A stretch of 64,000 nucleotides of DNA from Promethearchaeota archaeon (lineage in GTDB: Archaea > Asgardarchaeota > Lokiarchaeia > Sigyniarchaeales > SOKP01): the NCBI GenBank assembly GCA_019058245.1, contig JAHPZJ010000006.1, positions 96,457 through 160,456 of the forward strand, read 5' to 3'. The position numbers were made by a program, and so were the translations under genes. Each line of letters starts with the position of its first letter. Within the stretch, counting starts at the first letter, position 1. The notes below the pieces were generated by a model that made no database searches, had not been told where the DNA came from, and saw nothing but the letters and a program-made list of their open reading frames with translations. Positions 4,966 through 27,629 of the stretch are shown piece after piece.

Positions 4966-5856
4966 TTAGTTTTGGCATTCTATTCTTCTTTTTATATCTT
5001 TCCACATGTTATCTATATAAACTTTATATACTTTAATTTGTTGTTGAGTCATCTCACTAAATCTTTTTTGAGCTTTGAGATATTCTTCTATAGGTTTACG
5101 CTTTAAAGGATCTAAATATCTGCTGCTTGGTTTTGATAGTTTAAATATACCATTTTCAATTTCATATAAGATCCAAAAACCTGTTTGTACTGCTAACCGT
5201 CCAATTGATATTGTATCTTTAGGATCATAACCCCATCCAGGTGGACAAGGAGATAATATATGAAAATACTTTGAGCCATGAATAGTTCGTGCTTTTTTAA
5301 ATTTTTCAAATAAATCTAAAGGATAAGATGCAATGCCAGTTGCAATATATGGGATTCCATGAGCTTCTAATATTTTTGGCATATCTTTTTTATGACTTAA
5401 TTTGCCTTCAGGTGTAGTGGTCGTTTTAACTCCATATGGAGTTGATCCACTCCGCTGAACACCCGTATTCATATAGGCTTCATTATCATAACAAGCATAT
5501 ATAAAGTTTGTCCCTCTTTCAACAGCTCCACTCAGAGCTTGTATTCCTATATCGGTTGTACCTCCATCTCCAGCAAAAGCGAGAACTGTAATTTCATTTT
5601 CTAAGCCTTTATCTTCTAAGGAAGCTACTATTCCTGATGCTGAAGCCCCTGTGGTTGCAAAAGGTGTATGATACACACTAACTTTCGTGGAACAGAATCC
5701 CTGCATACCATGTAAAACTGTTAAACAAGATGCTGGTACAGTTACAAGTGTTTTTGCACCTAATGCTTTTAATGCAATTCTATATATTAATGCCATACCA
5801 CATCCTGCACATGCACGAGTACCAGGATAAATAAATTCCTCTTCAGGAAGATCCAT
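4966..5856 (-). CDS. porB: Pyruvate/2-oxoacid:ferredoxin oxidoreductase beta subunit
   Basis: ACAGCG, TPP-binding GDGG...DNEAYMNTGVQRS, LSPCPPGW. Confidence 0.93.
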   Translation of the reverse strand: MDLPEEEFIYPGTRACAGCGMALIYRIALKALGAKTLVTVPASCLTVLHGMQGFCSTKVSVYHTPFATTGASASGIVASLEDKGLENEITVLAFAGDGGTTDIGIQALSGAVERGTNFIYACYDNEAYMNTGVQRSGSTPYGVKTTTTPEGKLSHKKDMPKILEAHGIPYIATGIASYPLDLFEKFKKARTIHGSKYFHILSPCPPGWGYDPKDTISIGRLAVQTGFWILYEIENGIFKLSKPSSRYLDPLKRKPIEEYLKAQKRFSEMTQQQIKVYKVYIDNMWKDIKRRIECQN

Positions 5857-13416: not shown

Positions 13417-14262
13417 ATGAAAAATGAAACAGGATTTTTTGAAGGAAGAGAATTGAAAAAATTATTTTATCAATATTGGTTACCAGATTCGGGAGATATA
13501 AAAGCATATGTTGTAGCATTTCATGGATGGGGTACTCATTCTGATAGATTGAAAGATGTGGCTAATTATCTTACAGAAAATGGATATGCTGTTTATGCGT
13601 TTGATTTAAGAGGGCATTGGAGAAATGCTGGTGATATTCCAGGCCATATAGATAGTATGGATCATATCCAAAAGGATACGCTTCTCTTTATGGATATGCT
13701 CCGTGATATTGCGGGAAATAAAAAAATTTTTCTGATGGGACATTCTTTTGGAGGTTTAATATGTTTAATTTTTGCTATTAATCACCCAAACTTAGCAGGA
13801 GTGTTGGTATCATCTCCATTATTAGGAATGTTTTTAAAATTATCAATGGGTAAAAAAGTTATAAAATCAATATCTAAAACTCTTGATAAATTATCACCAA
13901 ATAAGATATTAGATAATATTATCGATCAAAATCAATTAACAAGTGATTTAAAAATATTAAGAGAACATATTGCGGATAAACATAAAACAGAAGTAATATC
14001 TGCCAAGTCTGCGACTGAAATTGATAAATTTTCAAAATGGGCAATGGATAATGCCTCAAAATTACTTTGTCCAATATTTATTATGCAATCTGGAGATGAC
14101 AAAATAGTAGATAAGGATATGGCTAATCAATTCTTTAAACTTATTAGCTTCAAAGATAAAACTTATCGTGAATATGATGGCTTTCTACATGAATTATGGA
14201 ATGAAAAAGGAAGAGTACAAGTTTATCAAGATATGTATGTGTGGTTAGAAAAACATTTGTAA
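13417..14262 (+). CDS. Alpha/beta hydrolase (lysophospholipase/monoacylglycerol lipase family)
   Basis: FHGWG, FDLRGH, nucleophile elbow GHSFGG, D.IV, HELWNE. Confidence 0.92.
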   Translation: MKNETGFFEGRELKKLFYQYWLPDSGDIKAYVVAFHGWGTHSDRLKDVANYLTENGYAVYAFDLRGHWRNAGDIPGHIDSMDHIQKDTLLFMDMLRDIAGNKKIFLMGHSFGGLICLIFAINHPNLAGVLVSSPLLGMFLKLSMGKKVIKSISKTLDKLSPNKILDNIIDQNQLTSDLKILREHIADKHKTEVISAKSATEIDKFSKWAMDNASKLLCPIFIMQSGDDKIVDKDMANQFFKLISFKDKTYREYDGFLHELWNEKGRVQVYQDMYVWLEKHL

Positions 14263-14342
14263 AAGAACATTATAGAGATTTTTTTTATCTAAATTAATCC
14301 TTTCCTCTTGTCAATTTTTGGTTTTCTTATATTAATCTTCAT

Positions 14343-15500
14343 CTATTTCACACCTCCATATACAGCAAAATAATAGCATTTCCAAATTACGTCAACATAT
14401 TTAAAACCAATATTATCAAGCCACTTTAGCTGGTTGAAAAGTACGGCAGGACAGTCTTCTTGACGATGATCTATGAGAATTCTCTCAATATCATCCATTG
14501 AATAATTACTTCTTAAAAAATCAGTCCATTGCTTTACATACATATCTTGTAAATAATTATTTGAACCCAGAATATTATCCAAATTATAAAATACTCCTCC
14601 TTGATTAAGAGCGTCATAAATTTTTGTATAAAACTTAACTTTATCTTCATCAGACCTAAGATGATGTAAGGCTAATGATGATAATATTACATCACACTGA
14701 GCTGTAAAAGATAGCATATTAAAATCATCTATAAGAAATTCAACATTGTTAAAGTTTGAAAGCTTTTTTTTAGCTAACTCGACCATATTCTCTGATACAT
14801 CAATCATAGTTAATTTAGAATTCGGAAAGTGCATTTTTATCAATTTTGAGAGATTTCCTGTCCCAGAGCCTAAATCAACTATTTTTATTTGTTGATGTAT
14901 ATCAAATGGTATAGAATTTATCAATGCTATCAGCATTTCATTATAATAGGGAACTACTTTGGGGATAAAATCATCATATGCAAATGATATTTCTTCAAAT
15001 CGAACTCTAATTTTTTCATTTATACTTTTTGTATTATACTTCTCTAAATACAAAAGTTTAACATTTTCATTCAATTCCTCGGTTTTAAATATATTATATC
15101 CCAGTTTCTGATAAAGATATAGATTTTTTTCGCTCTTAAATCCAGTAAATAATTCAAATCTGTCAGCATAGCTAAAGTTGTTTTCAATCTTTCTAAGAAT
15201 TAAAGTACCTAACCCTTGATTTTGATATTCTGGATGGACTATTAATTTTCCTATGAAGCATGATTCTTTATCTCGATATGCTCTTACCGATCCAATTATT
15301 TTATCATTTTTTAAAGCTTTTAGAAATATACTTTTTCTAAACTCCTCTTTAAGTTCTTCAATTGTCTGATGTAAAGGAGGGATATTGAAATCATTGTAGA
15401 TTTCTGCTTCGCTTTGATATGCTATTTTTTGAAGTTGAAGAATTTCATCTAAATCATTTTCTTTAACTGATTTAATTTCAACAGATTTAATTTCACTCAT
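14343..15500 (-). CDS. GNAT acetyltransferase fused to a CmoA-like class I SAM methyltransferase
   Basis: N-terminal LIVHPEYQNQGLG and NLYLYQKLGY (GNAT); C-terminal VDLGSGTG, SSLALHHL, LNQGG. Confidence 0.85.
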   Translation of the reverse strand: MSEIKSVEIKSVKENDLDEILQLQKIAYQSEAEIYNDFNIPPLHQTIEELKEEFRKSIFLKALKNDKIIGSVRAYRDKESCFIGKLIVHPEYQNQGLGTLILRKIENNFSYADRFELFTGFKSEKNLYLYQKLGYNIFKTEELNENVKLLYLEKYNTKSINEKIRVRFEEISFAYDDFIPKVVPYYNEMLIALINSIPFDIHQQIKIVDLGSGTGNLSKLIKMHFPNSKLTMIDVSENMVELAKKKLSNFNNVEFLIDDFNMLSFTAQCDVILSSLALHHLRSDEDKVKFYTKIYDALNQGGVFYNLDNILGSNNYLQDMYVKQWTDFLRSNYSMDDIERILIDHRQEDCPAVLFNQLKWLDNIGFKYVDVIWKCYYFAVYGGVK

Positions 15501-15699
15501 TATTTTTTCTCCTCAAAAATTTTTTCCGATATATCATTTCGATTATTTTTTTTTATTTTTTTCTGATATTTTTTTTTTTCACTCATATTCAATATATTTT
15601 ATGAATTGGATTAGAATTTCTTAAAGAAGTGAAAGATAGTTGGAATGATATAAGAATATCTTTAATTTTTAAAAAAAACAGAAATTCTAATAATTAAAC

Positions 15700-15727
15700 C
15701 ATTGCGCACGTTCTACGCGTGCCAATG
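15700..15727 (-). promoter_or_regulatory. Leader hairpin over the last Trp codon and the stop
   Basis: CATTG-GCACG [CGTAGAA] CGTGC-g-CAATG: 10-bp stem with one bulge. Confidence 0.65.
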
Positions 15728-15790
15728 TAATACCCAAAACCAACTAATGAAAAATTTTCTTAAGCTTAAGTTTTTTTTAATTGTTGTCAT
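15713..15790 (-). CDS. Putative Trp-rich leader peptide (25 aa) MTTIKKNLSLRKFFISWFWVLHWHA
   Basis: Read directly on the minus strand: three TGG codons in the last nine codons, TAG stop inside a hairpin loop, same architecture as the leader before trpD. Confidence 0.7.
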   Translation of the reverse strand: MTTIKKNLSLRKFFISWFWVLHWHA

Positions 15791-15839
15791 TTTTCATTCA
15801 AAAGGTTTTGTTAATTATACAAATGTAATAATTAATTGA

Positions 15840-15854
15840 TATTTATATTTTTTT
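15840..15854 (-). promoter_or_regulatory. BRE/TATA-like promoter of leader 2
   Basis: AAAAAAATATAAATA about 50 nt upstream of the leader ATG; identical to 24597..24611. Confidence 0.6.
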
Positions 15855-15929
15855 AAATTCCTTAAATAATGATAAATTAGATTATTTTTTCTAATTTCTA
15901 TTGTCTATTTAAGATTTAGAAAATCTTAA

Positions 15930-16148
15930 ATGGATATATATGCATGGAATACGAAAGTGAGCAGTTTGTTTGATTTCAATAAAGATCCCAGATTGAATAA
16001 TAATATCATATCAGAAAATCCAGATAAAGTGAAAGAACTACTTGAACTGTGTTGGAAAGATGCCCGAGAACCAATTGACTTTGATTTCATGCGCCATTTT
16101 AAAGATCGACTGGGTTGTACACCAGTAACTCGAAAATTAACCAAATAA
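15930..16148 (+). CDS. Small hypothetical protein or gene fragment (72 aa)
   Basis: ATG-started ORF with protein-like composition in otherwise very AT-rich DNA. Confidence 0.45.
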   Translation: MDIYAWNTKVSSLFDFNKDPRLNNNIISENPDKVKELLELCWKDAREPIDFDFMRHFKDRLGCTPVTRKLTK

Positions 16149-16217
16149 TCCAAAGGGATTTTTTTTACTAAATAATTTCACCTAAAATAAATTAATAATA
16201 GTATAGTGAAAAAAGAT

Positions 16218-16324
16218 AGTTAGTAATATTTAACAAAATGTGATAAAAACCTAACATTTATATATGTTAATTATTTCTAATAATATGTTAATTATTTCTA
16301 ACAAATTATGAAAAAAATATAACA
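16218..16324 (+). promoter_or_regulatory. Array of TGTTA-N8-TAACA-like operators around a TATA box
   Basis: 18-bp sites at 16218, 16239, 16265, 16286 and (degenerate) 16307, with 21-bp phasing; TTTATATA at 16257-16264. Confidence 0.7.
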
Positions 16325-16336
16325 AGTGGTGATAAA

Positions 16337-16654
16337 ATGGATATAGGAATAATAATTCTGTTGATTCTAGGAATATTTCTGGCACAAATTTTGATTTTTC
16401 TATTTGTGTTCAGATATACAAAGAAAAAAGGGATACTTCTAAGAGATGAAATGACCCGCGGGATGATGCGTAAATCTAGCGAAATTTCGTTTTGGGGATC
16501 TTGGGTTTTCTGGATCATTATCTTAATATTAGAATCAATTTCAGAGTTCACCTTCAATTGGTATATCTATTGCGGACTAATAGGAATGGGAGTTATTTAC
16601 GTAATTTCTAATGCAATCATAAAATTCCAATTAAAAAACAAAGGTCAGGATTAA
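16337..16654 (+). CDS. Small membrane protein, DUF2178-like
   Basis: Three hydrophobic segments with [15 protein letters not shown] after TM1; translationally coupled to the XRE gene. Confidence 0.7.
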
Positions 16655-16896
16655 TGGCGAAGAAAACTAAAGAAGAGGAGTTTACTACCAGAATCAAGGA
16701 ATTACGGGCTAGATATAATCTGACTCAGAGTGATTTAGCTAAAATGGTTAATGTCCGGCGCGAGACGATCCTTTATATTGAAAAAGGAAAATATAATCCT
16801 TCTCTTGTTCTAGCTCATAAAATCTCAAAAGCATTGAACTCTAAAATCGATGAGATATTTCTCTTTGCAGATGATCAAGACACTAATCCTATTTAA
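16654..16896 (+). CDS. XRE-family HTH transcriptional regulator
   Basis: [44 protein letters not shown]. Confidence 0.95.
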
Positions 16897-16920
16897 TCAT
16901 TTTTTTTTTTAAGATTAAAA

Positions 16921-17514
16921 TTAAAGCTCTAAGAAATTTTTTAAGATTTGAATGCCGTGTGGCTTCATTTTGATGGATTCGGGGTGGAATTGAAGACCTT
17001 CTACGGGATATTGCTTATGTCGAACTCCCATAATCGTACCATCATCCGCTGTTGCAGAGATTTTAAGGTTTTGAGGGAGGATATCCCCCTTTGCTGCTAG
17101 TGAATGATATCGAATAACCTGTAAAGGATTGGAAACATCTTTTAATACTGTTTTTTGGTCGTGAAACACTTTAGATTCTTTACCATGCATAGGGCCTACT
17201 TTAGCTCTTCCTACATATTCCACATTTTCATCTTCTCCAAAAGCTTCGACAATCGCTTGATGACCTAAACAGATCCCCAATATTGGTATTTTGGAGTAGA
17301 ACTCTTTAATGATTGGAATTACTGTACCCGTATCATATTTAGGATGCCCAGGACCAGGTGAGATAATTATCTTATCAGCATTCATTTCTTTTACTTTATC
17401 TACTGCAATATGGTTATCCTCAACAATTATTTCAGCGTCTGGTTGTAATTGACATATATAATTGACCAGATTATACACAAAACTATCATAATTATTAATA
17501 AATAGAATTTTCAT
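16921..17514 (-). CDS. trpG: Anthranilate synthase component II
   Basis: NYDSFVYNL, ISPGPGHP, GICLGHQ, RYHSL, QFHPES. Confidence 0.96.
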   Translation of the reverse strand: MKILFINNYDSFVYNLVNYICQLQPDAEIIVEDNHIAVDKVKEMNADKIIISPGPGHPKYDTGTVIPIIKEFYSKIPILGICLGHQAIVEAFGEDENVEYVGRAKVGPMHGKESKVFHDQKTVLKDVSNPLQVIRYHSLAAKGDILPQNLKISATADDGTIMGVRHKQYPVEGLQFHPESIKMKPHGIQILKNFLEL

Positions 17515-19007
17515 TTTTGTCTCGCCTCTGCGATTTTTATTGATTTCAATACACTATAGAGTTTATTATAAGTCTCCATATATTCTTCATGAGGTTGACT
17601 ATCAGCAACAATACCTCCTCCAGCTTGTGCAAAATATGAGCCATTTCTTCCAAATAGAGTTCTTATTGCAATAGCAAATGTCATATCGCCATTGAAGCTA
17701 AAATACCCGACTCCACCACCATAGGGACCCCTTGACTCTGTTTCTAATTCTTGAATTAACTCCATAGCACGTTTCTTTGGAGCTCCCGAAAGTGTTCCAG
17801 CGGGGAATACACTCTTTAAGACTTGATATCCGTCTAATGGCGTTTTACTTCTAACTTTACTAACAATATGTTGGACTTTTTGATATTTCTGGACTGCCAT
17901 TAGTTCAAATGTATCAACAGAACCCGGATATGAGACCTTAGCTAAGTCGTTCCTTGCTAAATCCACCAGCATTATGTGTTCAGCCTGCTCTTTTGGATCA
18001 TTAAGCAATTCTTTTTCTAACTTTAAATCTTCCTCGGGTGTCTTACCTCTCCTAATCGTACCTGCGATTGGCACTGTGTTAAGAACATTTTTATTCTTGG
18101 AAATAAGTGCTTCGGGGCTACTTCCAATGATCTTAATCTTTCCAAAATTTATATTGTACATATATTGGGAAGGATTAAGCACTCTGAGAACCTCGTAGAT
18201 CTTCATAGCATCGATTTTACTATCCGTGTATAGCCTTCGGGAAATAACTGCTTGTATTATGTCACCCGCGTAAATATGTTCTTTTGTTTTTTCAATCATT
18301 CTTGCATGAGCACTTTCACTCGTATTTGAACGGAACGTGGATTCATCCACTTCATCTATATCTATTGGAATTTCCTTTTTTACGTCCGATTTATTATTTC
18401 TATTAAACAGACTAAGTTGATAACGAATGTCCTTATCTTTAGAATAGTCATCGATGCTATTATCAATCATAAATAGGGCGTTTGATGCATGGGAGTAAAC
18501 CAAAACTTTTGTATAGAGTGCCATCATAATATCTGGAAACTCACTCGTGGATTTATATCCTACATATGGAGCCACCACATCATAACCGATGTATCCTAAC
18601 ATCCCACCATAAAAGATATTCCTTGGGAATAATTCCGTAAAAGGAAGGTTAGAATAAGGAGTGAGACGACTAAGTGTATTAAGAGCTAACATATTATAAT
18701 CCACATTATCCTTGAAAGGGAGGGGATTATGCGGTCTTTCCTCAACTGGATCTTTCGATTCCATATACTCTTTGATAGTCTCACCTCTAGCGCTCGTGAT
18801 ATCGTACATTTTAAATTGATCTTCTTTAATTTCCAGTATAAAATCCGGATCTAGAGCAATAAAACTATATAACGTTTCTTTTGTATTCTCTGAAGCAGAC
18901 TCCAAGAGCGCATGCTTTTTCAAGTCATATTTCTTTACTAAATATTTATAAAATTCAAAGATGTTTTCCAATTCTCCAATTTTTTCAATATGAATATCAA
19001 ATTCCAT
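17511..19007 (-). CDS. trpE: Anthranilate synthase component I
   Basis: LLESA, NPSQYM, GSSPE, PIAGT, AEHIMLVDLARNDL, FPAGTLSGAPK. Confidence 0.96.
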   Translation of the reverse strand: MEFDIHIEKIGELENIFEFYKYLVKKYDLKKHALLESASENTKETLYSFIALDPDFILEIKEDQFKMYDITSARGETIKEYMESKDPVEERPHNPLPFKDNVDYNMLALNTLSRLTPYSNLPFTELFPRNIFYGGMLGYIGYDVVAPYVGYKSTSEFPDIMMALYTKVLVYSHASNALFMIDNSIDDYSKDKDIRYQLSLFNRNNKSDVKKEIPIDIDEVDESTFRSNTSESAHARMIEKTKEHIYAGDIIQAVISRRLYTDSKIDAMKIYEVLRVLNPSQYMYNINFGKIKIIGSSPEALISKNKNVLNTVPIAGTIRRGKTPEEDLKLEKELLNDPKEQAEHIMLVDLARNDLAKVSYPGSVDTFELMAVQKYQKVQHIVSKVRSKTPLDGYQVLKSVFPAGTLSGAPKKRAMELIQELETESRGPYGGGVGYFSFNGDMTFAIAIRTLFGRNGSYFAQAGGGIVADSQPHEEYMETYNKLYSVLKSIKIAEARQK

Positions 19008-19042
19008 TTTTTTATCTGTCCTTTTTATTTTTTTGTTTATAT

Positions 19043-19759
19043 TTATTTATTTTTAATTCCAAAAGCTCTTGGACATTTAACTCTGCATAGATTACATTTT
19101 TGGAGTGTATATCCTTTCTGATGTTTAAAATTCGATATTGGCCTACAAAGTGCTTGATTTACCGTTTCTCCATTTAATGCTTGTTGAGGACAAAATTCAA
19201 TACATATATTACATGAATCCAAACATCCTTCATAAGTGGCAATTGCATCTGCTTCTAGCTCAATATCTACCAGAACGGCTCCAAGTTGGATCATATTACC
19301 ATAAATATTATTAATTAAAAGAGTATTTTTTCCAATAACTCCAAGACCACTAAGATAACCTGCATGTCTTAATGACAAAATTGCTCTTCCATAAGACCTA
19401 TCTGGTTCCCAATACTCGTATGGGTCATCTGATGGTATGGGGACACATCTTATTCCCAATTCCTCTAAGCTATATAAAATATCAATAGTTAATTTATCAA
19501 TAATCCTCATAATCATGCTATTTACAAAAGTATATGGAACACAATTAACAGCATAATTTGAACTGTTAGGAGTTCTTTTTAAGAATACAACTATTGATTT
19601 ACATTCTGGAAAAATATCAGTAGGATGAAATCCTTTAGGCGCATCTTTAAATCTATCAACTGATGCAATTCCACATAGATCAGCTCCTAAATTATTTATT
19701 CTATTCTTAATATAGTTAGAATTAATATTATTGAGTAACTCATTTTCAGTATTTCTCAC
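19043..19759 (-). CDS. QueG-like (epoxyqueuosine reductase-like) Fe-S protein
   Basis: GADLCGIA...P.DI.PECKSIVV, LSLRHAGYLSGLGVIGKNTLL, CLDSCNICIEFCP, CNLCRVKCP. Confidence 0.82.
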   Translation of the reverse strand: MRNTENELLNNINSNYIKNRINNLGADLCGIASVDRFKDAPKGFHPTDIFPECKSIVVFLKRTPNSSNYAVNCVPYTFVNSMIMRIIDKLTIDILYSLEELGIRCVPIPSDDPYEYWEPDRSYGRAILSLRHAGYLSGLGVIGKNTLLINNIYGNMIQLGAVLVDIELEADAIATYEGCLDSCNICIEFCPQQALNGETVNQALCRPISNFKHQKGYTLQKCNLCRVKCPRAFGIKNK

Positions 19760-19762
19760 TAT

Positions 19763-20593
19763 TCAATTCACCCTCCTTATTGCATTCATAATACTTGAAA
19801 CAAAATCCTTCATTTCTAATTCCATCTTCTTATGATCATTAAGATTTTTTTTAACTATATTTACAATAGCAGAACCTATAATGATTCCATTGGCACCAGC
19901 ATCAATAATTGCATTAGCATGTTCTGGTTTAGAAATACCAAATCCAACAAATACGGGGAGAACTTTTTCAGTCTTAAGCTTGATCCGTTTGATAGTATCT
20001 TTAGTAATTTGCGCAACAGTATCCCTAATCCCTGTAACACCCATAATTGCAATTAAATAAATAAAACCTTTTCCTACTTTCAAGATTTTATCTAATCTCT
20101 CCTCTGTTGTGGAAGGAGCAACTAGAAAAATCAAGCAGATATTATATTTTTCACATGCCTTCAAAGTCAAATCTGCTTCTTCTATAGGTAAATCTCCAAT
20201 CACAATTCCATCTACACCGTTCTCTTTAAGATTTTTAAATGTTATATCAAGAGATGCTTCTATGGTGTCAGCACCTTGAATTAGAATGTTATAATAAGTT
20301 AATACAACTATTGGTTTCTCTGTTTCAGATCTTATAGTCTTTATAGCCTTTAAAGCTGTTTTTGTATTTACTCCTGCATTGAAAGCCCTAACATTTGCCT
20401 CTTGAATAGTAGGGCCGTCTGCAATTGGATCAGAAAAGGGAATTCCAATTTCAAGAATATCAGCATATGGTTCTATGATTTTGGCAAGCTTTATAAATTG
20501 ATCCATATTGGGATCTCCAGCCACTAAGAATGGCATAAATCTTCTTTCATTATTATTTTTGAACAATTCTAATATTCTATTTGAATCTGTCAT
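19763..20593 (-). CDS. trpA: Tryptophan synthase alpha
   Basis: [35 protein letters not shown]. Confidence 0.97.
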
Positions 20594-21807
20594 TTTATGC
20601 TGAACTCCATATGTTTTTTAATAATATCAAGATCTTTTGAACCAGATCCTGAAAGATTAATAATTACGATATCATCTTTTTTGAACATATCTTTATTTTT
20701 TTCTAAATAAGCTAAAGCATGAGAGCTTTCCAAAGCTGGGATTATTCCTTCAAGTTTAGATAGGTTTTTGAAAGCTTCTAATGTTTCATTATCGGTCGCT
20801 TCTCCAACAACTAATCGATTAAGTTGGTGTAAATAACAATGTTCAGGACCTACCCCTGGATAATCTAATCCCGCACTTATTGAGTGTGTTTCTATTATAT
20901 TTCCATACTCATTTTGTAAAAGGTATTGCATAGCACCATGCAAAACTCCTCTACGTCCTAATCCTAAGGCAATAGAATGTTTATTTGTGTCCCTACCTTC
21001 TCCAGCTGCTTCAACTCCAATTAATTGTACATTTGAATTATCAATAAAATCATAAAACGCCCCTATGGCATTACTCCCTCCACCTATACAAGCAATTATA
21101 GCATCAGGGGGTTTTCCTTCAAGTTCTAAAATCTGTACTTTCATTTCTTTCCCTATAATCCTTTGAAATTCTCGAACAATTAATGGATAGGGATGGGGAC
21201 CTACTACACTCCCCATTAAATAATGATATTCTTTCAAATTGGCAATCCAAAATCTAAGACCTTCATTAACAGCATCTTTTAAAGTTCTTGAACCAGACTT
21301 AACTGGAATCACTTCGGCACCTAGAATTTGCATTCTATAGACATTATAGGCTTGTCTTTCAATATCAATTTCACCCATAAATACTTTAGTTGGCATACCA
21401 AAATATGCACCAGCTATAGCAGTTGCAAATCCATGTTGTCCTGCTCCTGTTTCAGCTACTAATTTCTTTTTTCCCATTTTTTTAGCGAGAAGAGCTTGCC
21501 CCATAACATTATTTATTTTATGAGCACCTCCATGGTTAAGATCTTCTCTTTTTAAATAAACTTTGCAACCAATAAAATCGCTATATCTCTCAGCATAATA
21601 TAATGGTGTCGGTCTGCCACTATAAAATCTTAATATCCGTTCAAATTCCTCAATGAAATTTTCATCATGAATGTATCGGTTAAATGCTTCAGTAAGTTCA
21701 TTGAGGGCAGGCATTAATATTTCAGGTGCAAACATGCCACCAAATTCTCCGAATTTTCCTAATTCGTCTGGATATTTGTCAATATAATCCATTTTTTTCA
21801 TACTCAT
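20590..21807 (-). CDS. trpB: Tryptophan synthase beta (TrpB1 type)
   Basis: [46 protein letters not shown]. Confidence 0.97.
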
Positions 21808-22451
21808 ATATTTTTCTTAATTTCTTTTATTTTATCTAAAAATTTTTTAATTTTTAAAGGACTTTTAACACCTTTTTTTGATTCCAAAGAACTACTTACA
21901 TCAATTCCATATGGTTTTATCTTTTTGATTATATCTTCTATATTATCGATACTAATTCCTCCTGCCAGAATGATTTTGGTTTCAGAAATATTTTCCATTA
22001 ATTCCTTAATTATACTAATCTCTAACTTATTTCCATGCCCTTCGCTGTTATCAATTAGAATTGCAAAGAAGCTACCTTGTGACTCATTGATTTTAGTGAT
22101 AATCTCTTGTAGATTTGAATGATTTAACTTTAGTGCTAATATTATTTTCTCCTTTAATTCTTTTGAAATACTTCCTAATTCCTCTATACTCATATTACTA
22201 TGAATTTGATAATAGTTTACCTTAATATTGTTTACAATTTTCTTTAATTCATCAACGGTTCGGGGTTTACTAACCACAACTGTTAGGATATCATTAGATA
22301 TATTATCAAGAAGATTATTTATTTCTGTTTTCTTCAAGTTCCTTGGAGAAGAGGGGACATTATAAATAAAACCAACCGCATTAGCCCCATTTTCTGCACA
22401 AAGAGAAATTTCTTCTGGTTTTTTTAATCCACAGATCTTTATATACTCCAT
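21804..22451 (-). CDS. trpF: Phosphoribosylanthranilate isomerase
   Basis: [27 protein letters not shown]. Confidence 0.94.
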
Positions 22452-23245
22452 TAAGAACTTCCTCTTAACTCTTGAATTTTTTCTTTAATATTTTCGGATT
22501 GCATTATAGAAGAACCAACTAAGAAAGCATCTACCTTATATGGAACAAGAAAGTTGATATCATCTTTAGTAGAAATTCCACTTTCGCTAATCACACAAGT
22601 TTTATTCCCAACAATTTCTTTGATTTTTGGTATTAACTCCTTCGAAGTATTAAGATCTATTAGCATATTATTTAAATTACGATTATTTACACCAATCAAC
22701 TTGGGAATATGCCCAATTTCGAGTAAAGATTCAATATCTTTTAATTCTGATTTATCATGAATTTCTATTAATGGTTCTAGATCATATTGAATTGCCAATT
22801 CATATAAATTATTCAAGTTACCAAGTTGATTAATTAACAAGATATTAGTGGCTCCAATTTTTTTTGCTAATCGAAGCTGTAATTCATCGAAAACAAAATC
22901 CTTCATTAAACAAGGAATTTTAGTAGCATTTACAGCTTCCATTAGATTTTCAAATGAACCATTAAAATATTTTGGTTCTGTAAGTATGCTAAGTCCAATT
23001 ACTCCTGCGTTTTCCATTTCTTCTGCAACTTTAGAAACATTTATGTTAGATCTTATACTTCCCAGAGAAGGAGAGGAAGGTTTTATTTCCGAGATTATCG
23101 AAATTTTTCCTTGTTTACCAATATTCTCACTTAAAGGGATCCTTGAAGAAGCTTGAAAAGTCTTTGCTAAACTTTCAAACAAATCTATTTGTTTTACCAG
23201 TGATTTTTTTCTGCTTGCTAATATTTGATGTAGAATATTGGTCAT
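22451..23245 (-). CDS. trpC: Indole-3-glycerol phosphate synthase
   Basis: ISEIKPSSPS, SILTE..YF.GS, LMKDF, GVNNRNL, ISESGI. Confidence 0.95.
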   Translation of the reverse strand: MTNILHQILASRKKSLVKQIDLFESLAKTFQASSRIPLSENIGKQGKISIISEIKPSSPSLGSIRSNINVSKVAEEMENAGVIGLSILTEPKYFNGSFENLMEAVNATKIPCLMKDFVFDELQLRLAKKIGATNILLINQLGNLNNLYELAIQYDLEPLIEIHDKSELKDIESLLEIGHIPKLIGVNNRNLNNMLIDLNTSKELIPKIKEIVGNKTCVISESGISTKDDINFLVPYKVDAFLVGSSIMQSENIKEKIQELRGSS

Positions 23246-23252
23246 TATTTCT

Positions 23253-24308
23253 TCATAATATATTATTTAATTTTTGTTTATCTCCACCAGAAACCTCAAT
23301 AAAATTCTCGAGTTTTTGAAAAGCTTTGCCTTCTTCTATAGAATTTTTTGCCATAGAAATCCCCTCGTCAATGTCTTTTACAATATTAGCGCTAGTAAGA
23401 GCTAAGGCAGCATTCATCAAGACAGTATTATACTTAGCTCCTTTTAATTGATTTTTGAGGATACCTAACGCAATTTTCAGATTCTCATCAAGATTTCCAG
23501 CTAATATTTCTTCCACGGTACAATCTGGAAGGTTGAAATCTTTATTCGTTAAAGCATAAGATTCAATATTCCCATTTTTAACCTCAGTTATATAATTAAT
23601 TCCTATAGGTGCTAACTCATCAATTCCATATGAATTATGTACTGTGAATACATGTTTTCCTCCAAGATTTCCAAGGACTTTTGCCATAACTGGTGCTAAA
23701 TCTTTTTGGAAAACGCCTAGAGTGTGATAAGGAGCATTTGCAGGATTTGTTAAAGGTCCTAATATGTTAAAAACAGTTCTAATTTTTAGTTCCCTCCTTG
23801 TTGGCATTGCATGTTTCATTGCAGGATGAAATAAAGGTGCAAACATAAAACCAATACCTACTTGTTCTATACATTTTTTAACCTCTTCTGGGGATAAATC
23901 AATTTTTACACCTAACCCTTCTAATAAATCTGCACTCCCACATTTACTCGTAACTGCTCTATTTCCGTGTTTTGCAACAGGAACGCCAGCACCCGCTACA
24001 ACTAATGCTGAGATCGTACTTATATTAAAGGTTTTTACTTTATCTCCTCCAGTACCACATGTATCCAATAATTCTCTATTTATTTGCGGTTCAATTCGAT
24101 TTGCGAATTCACGCATAATTCGCGCAAAACCTGTGATCTCTTCTATAGATTCACCTTTCATATTTAAAGCTGTTAAAAATGCTCCCAATTGGGAAGCAGA
24201 AACATTTCCACTCATTATTTCTCTCATAATATTTTCTGCTTCGCTTGTTGATAAATCAACTTTTCTGATAATTTTATGTAATCCGTTAATTATTTTTTCT
24301 TCAAACAT
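23253..24308 (-). CDS. trpD: Anthranilate phosphoribosyltransferase
   Basis: DTCGTGGD, FNIST, VAKHGNR..TS..GSAD, RTVFNILGPLTNPA. Confidence 0.97.
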   Translation of the reverse strand: MFEEKIINGLHKIIRKVDLSTSEAENIMREIMSGNVSASQLGAFLTALNMKGESIEEITGFARIMREFANRIEPQINRELLDTCGTGGDKVKTFNISTISALVVAGAGVPVAKHGNRAVTSKCGSADLLEGLGVKIDLSPEEVKKCIEQVGIGFMFAPLFHPAMKHAMPTRRELKIRTVFNILGPLTNPANAPYHTLGVFQKDLAPVMAKVLGNLGGKHVFTVHNSYGIDELAPIGINYITEVKNGNIESYALTNKDFNLPDCTVEEILAGNLDENLKIALGILKNQLKGAKYNTVLMNAALALTSANIVKDIDEGISMAKNSIEEGKAFQKLENFIEVSGGDKQKLNNIL

Positions 24309-24486
24309 TTTTCTGCTTGTTTTTAATTTTTTATTTAGTTTTATCTACACATTATTAATGTGTGACTTTACTATATTGGAATTCAATTTAATAAAGCACA
24401 TATAGAAAATAAGTAAGATGTTTTCAGAAAGGAGGATTAAAGAATAGTATAATGTGAACAATAAAATATAATTTAACCTATGTGAA

Positions 24487-24504
24487 GCGCGTTCTTATGC
24501 GCGC
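24487..24504 (-). promoter_or_regulatory. Leader hairpin over the stop codon
   Basis: GCGCG [CATAAGAA] CGCGC: an all-GC stem in very AT-rich DNA. Confidence 0.65.
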
Positions 24505-24548
24505 CAAGACCAATGCCAACGAAAAGGAATTATTTTTTCATTAGCCAT
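24495..24548 (-). CDS. trpL: trp operon leader peptide (17 aa) MANEKIIPFRWHWSWRA
   Basis: ATG GCT AAT GAA AAA ATA ATT CCT TTT CGT TGG CAT TGG TCT TGG CGC GCA TAA, ending 186 nt upstream of trpD on the same strand; three Trp codons in five. Confidence 0.85.
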   Translation of the reverse strand: MANEKIIPFRWHWSWRA

Positions 24549-24596
24549 TTTTTTAAACCATATTTCATATATCTTGAAAGAATTAAGGATTCTCAC

Positions 24597-24611
24597 TATT
24601 TATATTTTTTT
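24597..24611 (-). promoter_or_regulatory. BRE/TATA-like promoter of the trp leader
   Basis: AAAAAAATATAAATA about 49 nt upstream of the leader ATG; identical to 15840..15854. Confidence 0.6.
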
Positions 24612-24770
24612 ATATCTTAGAATTTTAGTAGACTCTTAAAGATAATAAAAACCCTCTCTGTTCTCTACATATTAATTATTAAAAAATTAACAAATAGAGT
24701 TAATATTAAATTACTGTTATAATTGATTATATTGAAATTGAATTTTTCTTATATCTCAAATGAGTAGATT

Positions 24771-27629
24771 ATGGAGGAAATTGACCCTAAGAAGTTAACT
24801 CCTATGTTAAAACATTGGTATTCAATTCGTAAAAGATTTCCTTCAGATTATCTCATTGCATATCGCATGGGCGATTTTTATGAATTTTTTTATGATAATG
24901 CTGAAAGAATTTCAAAGCTTTTAGGAATAACTCTAACAAAAAGAGGAGATATTCCCTTAGCAGGGATTCCTCATCATTCTGGTCATAATTATTTTAATAA
25001 TTTAATGAACCTCGGTGAAACATTAGTCATAGTTGAACAATTAGAAGATCCTGCTACAGTAAAGGGAAGAATTGTAAAGCGTGGAGTTACTCGAGTGCTC
25101 TCACCAGGAACAATTATAGAACCAAACCTGCTAAAATCAAATCAAAATAATTATATTGCCTCCATGATTAAAGAAAAAAATGGATTTGGTGTTGCTTTTA
25201 TGGATATATCTACTGGAGAGTTTGTAGCTACTGAAATATCAAATAAGAATCAAGATTCACAAGAACAATTATTGAGTTTACTTTCTCAGTATGACCCTGT
25301 AGAATTAATTATACCTCTTGATCTAAAAAATGATGAGCGACTCTTTATTTTATTGACAGATTTAACTAAAGCGATCATTAAATCATATGATGAGCATGTT
25401 TTTTTATACGAGGAGGCCTATACATTAATTTCCCGTCATTTTAAAGTTACGAATTTAGAAAGTTTTGCCTTAGAAGATAAACCCATAGCCATTCAAGCCG
25501 CGGGAGGCCTATTAGCATTTTTAAAAGATACCCAACGAGATGTGATTCCAAATATCTTTAAAGTCAATGTTATTAAAGAAGAAAACGTACTCCACTTAGA
25601 CTATATTACACAGAGGAATTTAGAGTTAATTAATTCACTTTGGGAAAGAGGTAAGGATACCACGCTATATTCTATTTTTAACCACACTTGTACTCCAATG
25701 GGTGCTCGTTTAATAAAGAAATTCATCCTCCAACCTCTTACAGATATTAAAGAAATTAATCAACGATTAAAAATCGTCCAAAAGTTTAAAGACGATATTT
25801 TTCTAAGATCTGATCTAAGGGAGGAATTAGGTGTTATTGGTGATTTAGAAAGATTTATTAATAGAATTACTTATGCGGGTCGTACTAATGCTCGAGATCT
25901 AATAAATATTAGAAATTCTTTAGAGAAAATTCCAATAATCAAGCAATTATTAGAGAAGGCTGATATCCCGGAAATTTCAAATTTTCTTGAAAAGATTAAT
26001 ACTTTCAATGAAATCAAAGAATTAATAAATATTTCAATTAAGGATAATCCCCCTACTACTATAAAAGAGGGCAATATCATTAAAAATGGTTTCAATAATG
26101 AATTAGATGAGCTCAGAGATATAGTACAGAATGGAAAGAAATATATTCTGGACTATGAAGGAGAACAGAAGAAAAAGTGGAATTTAACGACAGGTTTAAA
26201 AGTTGGATATAATAATATACTAGGTTATTATATCGAAATAACATTAAAAACTCTAAATATTATAAAAACCGTTCCTGAAGAGTATAATGAAAGAGCAACC
26301 CTTAAGAATGCAAAAAGATATACTACAAAACGATTAAAAGAACTTGAAGAGAAAATTTTGAGTGCAGAAGAAAAAATCAACGATTTAGAATATGAGATAT
26401 TTAATACTATTCGTGAAAAAGTTGAAATAGAAACAAAAAATATTCTTGAGACTGCCAAAAGTATTGCTGCTATTGATGTACTTACTTGTTTTGCTGAAAT
26501 TGCAGAAATATATAACTATTCAAGACCAATTATCAATCATGAAAATAAAATAATTATAAAAGATGGTAGACATCCCGTTATTGAACAAATAAACTTAGAT
26601 GAGCAATTTATCCCTAATGATTGTTATTTAGATAATGATAATGACCAACTATTAATTATTACTGGCCCAAATATGGCTGGCAAAAGTACATTTTTAAGAC
26701 AAGTAGCTTTAATCTGTATAATTGCACAAATGGGATGTTTTGTTCCAGCAAAATCTGCTACAATCGGAATAATTGACCAAATTTTTACCCGAATAGGAGC
26801 CTCTGATGATCTTGCCAGAAAATTAAGTACTTTTATGATTGAAATGACTGAAACTGCTAAAATTCTAAATTATGCTACACCAAAAAGTATAGTCATCATA
26901 GATGAATTAGGGAGGGGAACAAGTACTAGTGATGGGCAAAGTATAGCAATGGCAACTCTTGAGAAATTACATGAGCTAAAAGTAAAGACTCTATTCAGTA
27001 CCCATTATCATCAATTAACAGAACTTAATTTACCAGGAGTAAAAAATTATCATTTAGACATTATCGAAAATGATGATGGGAGTATCAATTTTGTAAGGAC
27101 ATTAAAGCAAGGAAGTACAGATAAATCTTATGGTATTCATGTTGCAAAACTAGCAGGAATTCCTGATGATGTGATAATAAGAGCTTTTGAAATTCTTGAA
27201 CAAATTGAAGAAAAAGATCCTTTTAGGACAGCAATTAGACAAAATGGAGAATTGGCTTCATCAAGTAAATACTATGATAAAATTATTGATGAAAAAAAAG
27301 TTGAGTTAGAAAATCTTAATCAAGAACTTAAAGCAATAAGGGCTTCATTAAACGAATGTATTGAAGATCTAAACCAAAATCAAAAAGAATTATCAAAAAA
27401 ACAGAATGAAATCAAAGAGATTGAACTGAAAAAAGCAAAAATTTCTGAAAGTAAAACTCCAAAAAAGAAAAAATATGTACAGACAAGTTTATTCGAACCA
27501 TTAAAGAATACAGAACAAGTAAACGATCTAGTTCATTTTATTAAGGAAATTATTATAAATTCTGAAAATCCAAGTAAAATAAAAGAACAATTAGATGAAT
27601 TAATAAAAAAATTAAAAAAACTCAGCTAA
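24771..27629 (+). CDS. mutS: DNA mismatch repair protein MutS (MutS1)
   Basis: YRMGDFYEFF, Walker A GPNMAGKST, STFMIEM, DELGRGTST, STHYH, SYGIHVAKLAG. Confidence 0.97.
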   Translation: MEEIDPKKLTPMLKHWYSIRKRFPSDYLIAYRMGDFYEFFYDNAERISKLLGITLTKRGDIPLAGIPHHSGHNYFNNLMNLGETLVIVEQLEDPATVKGRIVKRGVTRVLSPGTIIEPNLLKSNQNNYIASMIKEKNGFGVAFMDISTGEFVATEISNKNQDSQEQLLSLLSQYDPVELIIPLDLKNDERLFILLTDLTKAIIKSYDEHVFLYEEAYTLISRHFKVTNLESFALEDKPIAIQAAGGLLAFLKDTQRDVIPNIFKVNVIKEENVLHLDYITQRNLELINSLWERGKDTTLYSIFNHTCTPMGARLIKKFILQPLTDIKEINQRLKIVQKFKDDIFLRSDLREELGVIGDLERFINRITYAGRTNARDLINIRNSLEKIPIIKQLLEKADIPEISNFLEKINTFNEIKELINISIKDNPPTTIKEGNIIKNGFNNELDELRDIVQNGKKYILDYEGEQKKKWNLTTGLKVGYNNILGYYIEITLKTLNIIKTVPEEYNERATLKNAKRYTTKRLKELEEKILSAEEKINDLEYEIFNTIREKVEIETKNILETAKSIAAIDVLTCFAEIAEIYNYSRPIINHENKIIIKDGRHPVIEQINLDEQFIPNDCYLDNDNDQLLIITGPNMAGKSTFLRQVALICIIAQMGCFVPAKSATIGIIDQIFTRIGASDDLARKLSTFMIEMTETAKILNYATPKSIVIIDELGRGTSTSDGQSIAMATLEKLHELKVKTLFSTHYHQLTELNLPGVKNYHLDIIENDDGSINFVRTLKQGSTDKSYGIHVAKLAGIPDDVIIRAFEILEQIEEKDPFRTAIRQNGELASSSKYYDKIIDEKKVELENLNQELKAIRASLNECIEDLNQNQKELSKKQNEIKEIELKKAKISESKTPKKKKYVQTSLFEPLKNTEQVNDLVHFIKEIIINSENPSKIKEQLDELIKKLKKLS

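Follow-up and report, generated by a model that had tools for sequence, protein, structure and literature searches.

The window, i.e., the whole 64,000-nucleotide stretch of Lokiarchaeial DNA that was analyzed, carries on its minus strand a trp operon and, behind it, a gene for a GNAT-methyltransferase fusion protein (GNAT-MT). Both are preceded by a short upstream open reading frame (uORF) with Trp codons near its end. Named homologues assign the organism to Promethearchaeota. The features of the locus are as follows:

14343..15500, minus strand: fusion of a GNAT acetyltransferase with a class I SAM methyltransferase, MM_2633/CysG/BelI type (from Pfam and PDB sequence matches)
15500..15592, minus strand: 30-codon stub, putative remnant of an ORF90 gene (see below), including the Shine–Dalgarno sequence (SD) of the next gene (15509–15514)
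15610..15691, minus strand: predicted long-range stem H2, with arms 15680–15691 and 15610–15621 enclosing a U-rich loop
15671..15678, minus strand: U8 tract, candidate signal for aCPSF1/FttA or intrinsic termination
15700..15727, minus strand: predicted 10-bp hairpin H1, with its 5′ arm over the last Trp codon and the stop codon in its loop
15713..15790, minus strand: Trp leader uORF of 25 codons, with Trp at positions 17, 19, and 23
15840..15854, minus strand: putative archaeal promoter, an A-rich BRE region plus TATA box (15840–15847)
16337..16896, plus strand: gene pair for a membrane protein and an XRE-HTH protein, a convergent insertion separating trpG from the leader
16921..24308, minus strand: trp operon in the order D-C-F-B-A-(QueG-like)-E-G
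24495..24548, minus strand: trpD leader uORF of the trp operon, 17 codons, paralogous and of another subfamily

The Trp codons of the 25-codon uORF lie at 15742–15740, 15736–15734, and 15724–15722, and its peptide ends W-H-A-stop, versus W-R-A-stop in the trpD leader; the three Trp codons near the end and both endings agree with a preliminary description of this DNA. Short intergenic ORFs with an ATG and three Trp codons among the last 12 codons amount to 3 out of 3806 in the 3.09-Mb genome, and two of these three are the GNAT-MT leader and the trpD leader. A genome-wide search for TGG-CRC-GCR-TAR-(G)AAC-GYGC, which the preliminary description had suggested, was run and gave exactly two occurrences in the 3.09 Mb. 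The 212-nt spacer with a T8 run before the next gene was found as well (T8 at 15671–15678); its description as pyrimidine-rich holds for the first ~110 nt, which are U-rich, but not for the remainder, which is A-rich and contains the gene remnant.

The same description had taken a shared 15-mer about 50 nt before both ATGs as a common promoter and as evidence for a regulon. Its position was correct, i.e., 49 nt before the ATG of the GNAT-MT leader and 48 nt before that of the trpD leader (15840–15854 and 24597–24611, respectively). However, the 15-mer is an A-run plus a TATA box, and among homologous leaders its flanks vary. In most of 38 such leaders, the TATA octamer stands ~120 nt upstream of the final Trp codon. 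Because the 15-mer has seven copies in the genome, versus 1.8 expected, and only the TATA octamer is constant across the leaders of this subfamily (type-2), it is weak evidence for a shared regulon. As a Trp operator it was rejected, being generic TATA context.

In the order, the leader pattern had matches in 15 of 154 genomes, two of them by chance and the remainder leaders; about half of the 34 matches in metagenomes were chance matches in unrelated DNA. In an unbiased look upstream of trp genes, a Trp-rich uORF preceded every trpD unit of the family for which upstream DNA was available (15 of 15), the separate trpA or trpE units, and, in several genomes from two further families, trpD. The GNAT-MT leader thereby belongs to a group of Trp leaders that stand in front of almost all trp transcription units in its family. 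Genes for trpB2 are likewise preceded by Trp leaders, which belong to other subfamilies. From type-2, the subfamily of the GNAT-MT leader, we collected 38 leaders. Twenty-eight precede trpD, trpA, trpE, trpG, or a QueG-like gene heading trpEG; of the remaining ten, eight precede the GNAT-methyltransferase and two are cut off. Across the 38 leaders, ATGs are found 41 times in frame versus 17 times out of frame and stop triplets 0 versus 115 times, a bias that we read as a signature of translation. Peptide endings of the form W-x-W-(R/H) recur across leader subfamilies. A W-x-W uORF with its stop codon in a hairpin loop, a TATA box 50–60 nt before the ATG, and a U-rich spacer are all found at the GNAT-MT locus. 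Covariance-model searches of 14000–25200 with Rfam (Trp_leader, T-box) gave no match at E up to 5; a T-box was discarded for this reason and since the frame signature favors translation. In the literature searched, we found no report of such Trp leaders in archaea.

Of 38 leaders compared with the GNAT-MT leader, the trpD leader of its own genome was the least similar, with a score of 44 versus 74–119 for the others, which had been collected with the pattern of the GNAT-MT leader's own subfamily. From these sequences the two are distant paralogues of different subfamilies, which corrects the preliminary description.

Several related loci deserve mention. In genome G130 the trp operon is broken by a gene (L121:6017–7096, with 5759–5839), and the trpEG unit beyond it has a leader of its own; in the split trp operons of G025, G024, and L062, too, each unit has one leader. 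In the closed 6.04-Mb genome G143, trpD is preceded by a Trp uORF. Locus L232 (G132:C12:154360) has a leader with an eroded hairpin before a short trpE remnant, and trpA, C, and D were not found in the G132 genome. On the minus strand of G000:C13, ~181105 bases from the contig end, an ORF of 12 codons, five of them for His, stands 341 nt upstream of a gene that could not be recognized as belonging to his biosynthesis; this ORF is possibly due to chance.

The GNAT-MT fusion of the window belongs to a clade of eight members (support 100/99), 68–96% identical and found in two genera plus three further assemblies. Although its members were collected by gene homology, not by motif, all eight carry the leader upstream. 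Conservation in close relatives, whose lack would have refuted the reading of the preliminary description, was examined at these loci: the uORF is present in 8/8, its ATG and length are conserved, and its frame is open in seven complete orthologues and one cut by a contig end. The neutral tree length, estimated from four-fold sites of the eight orthologues, is 1.98 substitutions per site. In 5000 neutral simulations the frame never stayed open in all eight, and 5.8 of 24 Trp codons were expected to be kept, compared with 20 observed. The middle Trp is kept in 8/8 (P 0.0004), and ATG, middle Trp, and H1 core are unchanged across the tree. Relative to neutral, rates are 0.13 for the last Trp, 0.14 for the H2 5′ arm, and 1.1 for the linker. 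The uORF as a whole also evolves more slowly than neutral (0.53), so part of the Trp-codon conservation may lie at the RNA level.

One Trp was lost in the ancestor of the fusion-clade leaders. Of the Trp codons left, the first has been lost three times and changes as fast as the uORF background (0.53). Fusion-clade leaders have two to three Trp codons, whereas 27 of the 30 other leaders have four; this suggests a sensor less sensitive than the trp-gene leaders, and selection on the GNAT-MT leader is partly relaxed. By their sequences the eight leader-fusion cases are of one origin. A natural control is provided by G031 (L237, G031:C147:3815), where a dead duplicate leader with a trpA fragment stands beside the live copy: the ATG is lost and two Trp codons have become stops, while most positions are still identical to the live sister. 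Locus L164 has a degenerate leader copy. We conclude with high confidence that the GNAT-MT leader is under selection and is probably Trp-sensing, and consider it likely that through this leader the GNAT-MT gene responds to Trp. The small Trp regulon of the preliminary description, which included this gene, is backed by conservation and purifying selection, but hardly by its same-promoter argument.

A structure model of the fusion (pLDDT 91.9) was searched with Foldseek. The N-terminal GNAT domain is generic and of a kind found mostly in bacteria. The closest folds of the C-terminal domain are MM_2633 (3DTN) and CysG/BelI (9FCD), with TM 0.9 on the target and 25–29% identity. CysG and BelI are metal-dependent carboxyl O-methyltransferases, and CysG binds its alkylmalate with Arg22, His167, and Arg187 (PMC11408123). 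The methyltransferase domain of the fusion shares with these enzymes the fold, the His-His-Asp metal triad (H279, H280, D349, invariant in 57 homologues), and the gatekeeper Tyr. It differs in being fused to a GNAT and in that, by pairwise alignment, the three substrate-binding residues are replaced by Ile, Trp, and His, respectively. Because these residues are not kept, its substrate probably differs from that of CysG. Against NCBIfam the fusion stays below all cut-offs shown (CmoA carboxy-SAM synthase, 70.5 versus 193.3 bits). Other and distant homologues of both domains are not linked to trp genes. The QueG-like Fe-S protein encoded inside the trp operon (19043–19759, minus strand) has most of its homologues elsewhere, too. 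A melatonin-like pathway of N-acetylation and O-methylation found no support: the methyltransferase belongs to another type, and control would have the wrong sign. When Trp is short, acetylation and methylation of a Trp analogue or of an acid derived from indole or anthranilate appears plausible, but a real link of the enzyme to Trp metabolism is doubtful.

How the leader came to stand before this gene can be read from related loci. In L165, leader and fusion are separated by an intact 88-codon gene with homology to the trpD-proximal ORF90 family (31–40% identity, E 1e-9 to 6e-5). ORF90 encodes ~90 amino acids and, in 9 of the 10 genomes that have it, precedes trpD as the first cistron. In our window, the 30-codon stub is colinear with the 5′ end of the L165 gene, with a score of 106 versus a shuffled maximum of 87, part of this score coming from the H2 arm. 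ORF90 (e.g., L120:1640–1912, L218:1717–2016, and L165:966–1232) is predicted to be a three-helix protein with 31 homologues, Lokiarchaeial only where named. Pfam and PDB had no match for it, and a fold search gave no clear one (the best, among helical proteins, had Z 6.4); it is a candidate accessory factor of trp control.

At the other end of the operon, the order in G011 is leader, ORF90, trpD to trpG, second methyltransferase, and this methyltransferase directly follows trpG in G013 as well; in L080 a GNAT follows trpG, and G013, G012, and L080 have related operon 3′ ends. The second methyltransferase lies 3′ of the fusion in most relatives and is absent here and in L166. In L170 the leader is followed by the QueG-like gene, trpE, trpG, and finally the fusion, which lacks a leader of its own; the QueG-like gene, 72% identical to the one in our window, is there the first gene under the Trp leader. 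Just after the SD, trpG of L080 (~4700, minus strand) and the fusion of L170 (~7810, plus strand) have ACG in the place expected for ATG. Because the L253 operon, which L080 continues, has trpE but no trpG, the L080 trpG may be a working copy with a non-canonical start. In L007:492–1564 (G009) a frameshift and a stop break up the fusion, and a leader is absent upstream.

In G062, G054, and L165 the leader-GNAT-MT unit stands directly behind trpG. G062 and G054 are the closest relatives, and the membrane-protein/XRE-HTH insertion is absent from both. Here, the insertion parts trpG from the leader, which therefore needs a promoter of its own. DNA contigs from a second study join trpG, insertion, and promoter at 100% identity; among the pieces listed, none spanned leader and gene, and the linkage of these two is given by synteny in seven other assemblies.

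We propose that an ancestral operon had the order leader-ORF90-trpD...trpG-GNAT-MT-MT2, with the GNAT and methyltransferase genes at its 3′ end. In one ancestral lineage the trp core would have been lost from one copy, leaving promoter-leader-ORF90-GNAT-MT, and ORF90 would later have eroded to the stub. That the GNAT-MT leader was inherited from the front of a trpD operon is well supported by the sequences; it is no copy of the trpD leader of its own genome, its most distant relative in the set. The suggestion that the fusion replaced an originally regulated gene gains support from the ORF90 homologue in L165, and the proposed synteny comparison, which we carried out, showed ORF90 as the gene that normally stands between leader and trpD. 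The replaced gene was proposed to be a transporter or trpB2; instead, the lost genes were the trpD–trpG core. No type-2 leader was found before any transporter among the collected leaders. As to trpB2, its leaders are of other subfamilies, and the gene itself was not found in this 76% complete genome. G078 (95% complete) gave no match for trpA, B1, C, D, and E but has kept trpB2 with a Trp leader and the GNAT-MT unit; in G031 (91% complete), trpC, D, and E were not found. If these absences are real, the leader-GNAT-MT unit is independent of de novo Trp synthesis.

Such a history leaves room for a reading somewhat short of even odds, i.e., that the leader works on a gene unrelated to Trp, to which the promoter passed with the deletion of the trp core. 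Hairpins, reading frame, and Trp codons would be kept only because their breakage would lower expression, an explanation that addresses the purpose of the leader and is compatible with the sensing mechanism. It agrees with the single origin, with the reduced Trp count, with the loss of the second methyltransferase behind the fusion here and in L166, and with a patchy accessory pool of GNAT, both methyltransferases, and QueG-like gene in non-trp contexts. Yet deletion of the leader would give constitutive expression, and the whole architecture has been kept in 8/8 lineages; moreover, related genes stand under Trp leaders in three further arrangements.

The RNA of the leader was analyzed for a switch. 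H1 has a folding energy of −12.5 kcal/mol; 97.9% of its alignment cells are paired in 39 leaders, and two pairs have two-sided changes. H2 is a 12-bp stem in the consensus of the eight orthologues, with variants in trp-gene leaders. In masked folding, a ribosome modeled on the middle or last Trp removed H1 (pairing from 0.86 to 0.22 and 0, respectively), whereas a ribosome on the first Trp did not. In this model, the outcome matches the selection pattern on the Trp codons in the fusion clade. For H2 and for the accessibility of the U-tract we found no change with modeled ribosome position. A search for a mutually exclusive antiterminator gave no consistent partner for the freed H1 arm, whose duplexes mostly reached −1 to −9 kcal/mol versus −14.1 for H1, with one outlier; a short stem just after H1 was rejected, having five pairs here, two of them G-U, and not being general. 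No intrinsic terminator, i.e., a GC hairpin with an immediate U run, was found, H1 ending 21 nt before the U8 tract. A spacer tract of U6–U8 is present in 8/8 orthologues. U-richness has a broad maximum 55–80 nt after the last Trp codon, given without a control in this AT-rich DNA. The downstream SD (15509–15514) lies ~95 nt past H2 in unstructured, A-rich RNA and is unpaired in the consensus. The genome encodes aCPSF1 (879 bits versus a cut-off of 580). Lokiarchaeal aCPSF1 terminates at U4 tracts (PMC8716108), and the geometry of U-rich RNA at aCPSF1/FttA-dependent terminators has been described (PMC11616081).

We propose that a working, ribosome-read Trp sensor controls the GNAT-MT gene, together with the second methyltransferase in most relatives, and put the probability of this reading, drawn from comparative sequence evidence, at about 0.6. 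The transcript would start from the TATA promoter and its uORF would be translated co-transcriptionally. With plentiful charged tRNA-Trp, the ribosome would finish and leave, H1 would form, and transcription would end in the U-rich spacer, most likely via aCPSF1/FttA. With scarce tRNA-Trp, the ribosome would dwell on the Trp codons and hold H1 open, and polymerase would enter the gene. Conservation, selection, and gene order are what the sequences show; translation in vivo, the direction of control, and the termination step are what we infer. Simple polarity would give the wrong sign of control. Termination in the spacer, permitted by refolding of H1 after ribosome release, is favored because the SD is far from both stems, U6–U8 tracts are kept, aCPSF1 is encoded, and the Lokiarchaeal enzyme acts at U4; we give this step even odds.

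The leader might instead sense Trp but act post-transcriptionally, a stalled ribosome stabilizing the mRNA or promoting downstream initiation. This would fit the lack of a classical terminator and a U-tract accessibility without a switch, but we consider it rather improbable: the SD is unstructured and remote from H2, the 140–215 nt gap is long for termination-reinitiation, and the spacer U tracts are conserved. Still much less probable is a TnaC-like arrest peptide, in which arrest of the ribosome at the stop codon by free Trp would induce a gene that consumes or modifies excess Trp or indoles. An acetyl- plus methyltransferase, which adds groups, would suit such disposal, and the invariant middle Trp and the recurrent W-x-W-(R/H) endings would agree with it. 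However, the same leader type stands on biosynthetic genes, which are needed at low Trp, and, unlike in arrest peptides, both the N-terminal half and the positions separating the Trp codons are free to vary. A decaying relic without present function, for which the loss of one to two Trp codons and the degenerate L164 copy might speak, is barely credible given that purifying selection strongly preserves the open frame, its ATG, the middle Trp, and the two stems, in contrast to the dead G031 copy.

Amino-acid sensing by a leader peptide is a textbook mechanism in bacteria. The GNAT-MT leader resembles bacterial trpL (E. coli; Rfam Trp_leader) in having a short uORF with Trp clustered near its end and an overlapping, conserved hairpin and, as a family, in its place before trp genes. 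It differs in its archaeal host, TATA promoter, alternating W-x-W codons, and the non-trp gene downstream; moreover, a GC hairpin with an adjacent U run and a 2:3 antiterminator were not found here, and there is no Rfam match. Of the features of a classical attenuator, we found a conserved uORF with cognate codons and, over the control codons, a hairpin opened by a stalled ribosome in the model. From its sequence, the leader is attenuator-like as trpL is in its input, but fails to be so in its RNA switch. An attenuator before trpRS1 of Streptomyces is reportedly read through Trp codons. As proposed for the leader described here, it is ribosome-mediated, and it too precedes a gene that is not biosynthetic, there an antibiotic-resistant one (Vecchione and Sello 2010); the target is an auxiliary TrpRS in Streptomyces and a modifying enzyme here. 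With tnaC and the Salmonella corA leader our model shares that ribosome or RNA structure gates a termination factor in an untranslated spacer (PMC13675443). In contrast, the candidate factor here is the nuclease aCPSF1/FttA, not Rho, and control must be on at low Trp. As with TrpY and Tar, trp genes in archaea would be controlled by Trp availability; those regulators, however, are DNA-binding proteins acting at initiation, and the account mentions neither attenuation nor leaders (PMC6737238). In the literature searched, archaeal trp control was by protein regulators only.

New here are the leader on eight orthologous GNAT-MT genes, the selection on it, its origin from a trpD operon, its reduced Trp count, and its persistence in G078 despite the five trp genes that were not found there. 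A full scheme for Lokiarchaeia would combine ribosome-gated aCPSF1 attenuation without an antiterminator with a Trp regulon extended, even without Trp synthesis, to an acetyl/methyl-transferase module that, as tRNA-Trp charging falls, modifies indole or anthranilate compounds or inactivates Trp analogues; we consider this combination unlikely. Regulatory use of transcription-translation coupling and aCPSF1/FttA is a hypothesis in PMC11616081, and a conserved Asgard version of the leader without the bacterial RNA switch would provide a natural test of both in regulation. The GNAT-MT leader would be a portable module that selection has continued to maintain since it parted from the trp genes, with its Trp count retuned, and it points to Trp shortage as the physiological condition for an uncharacterized enzyme fusion.
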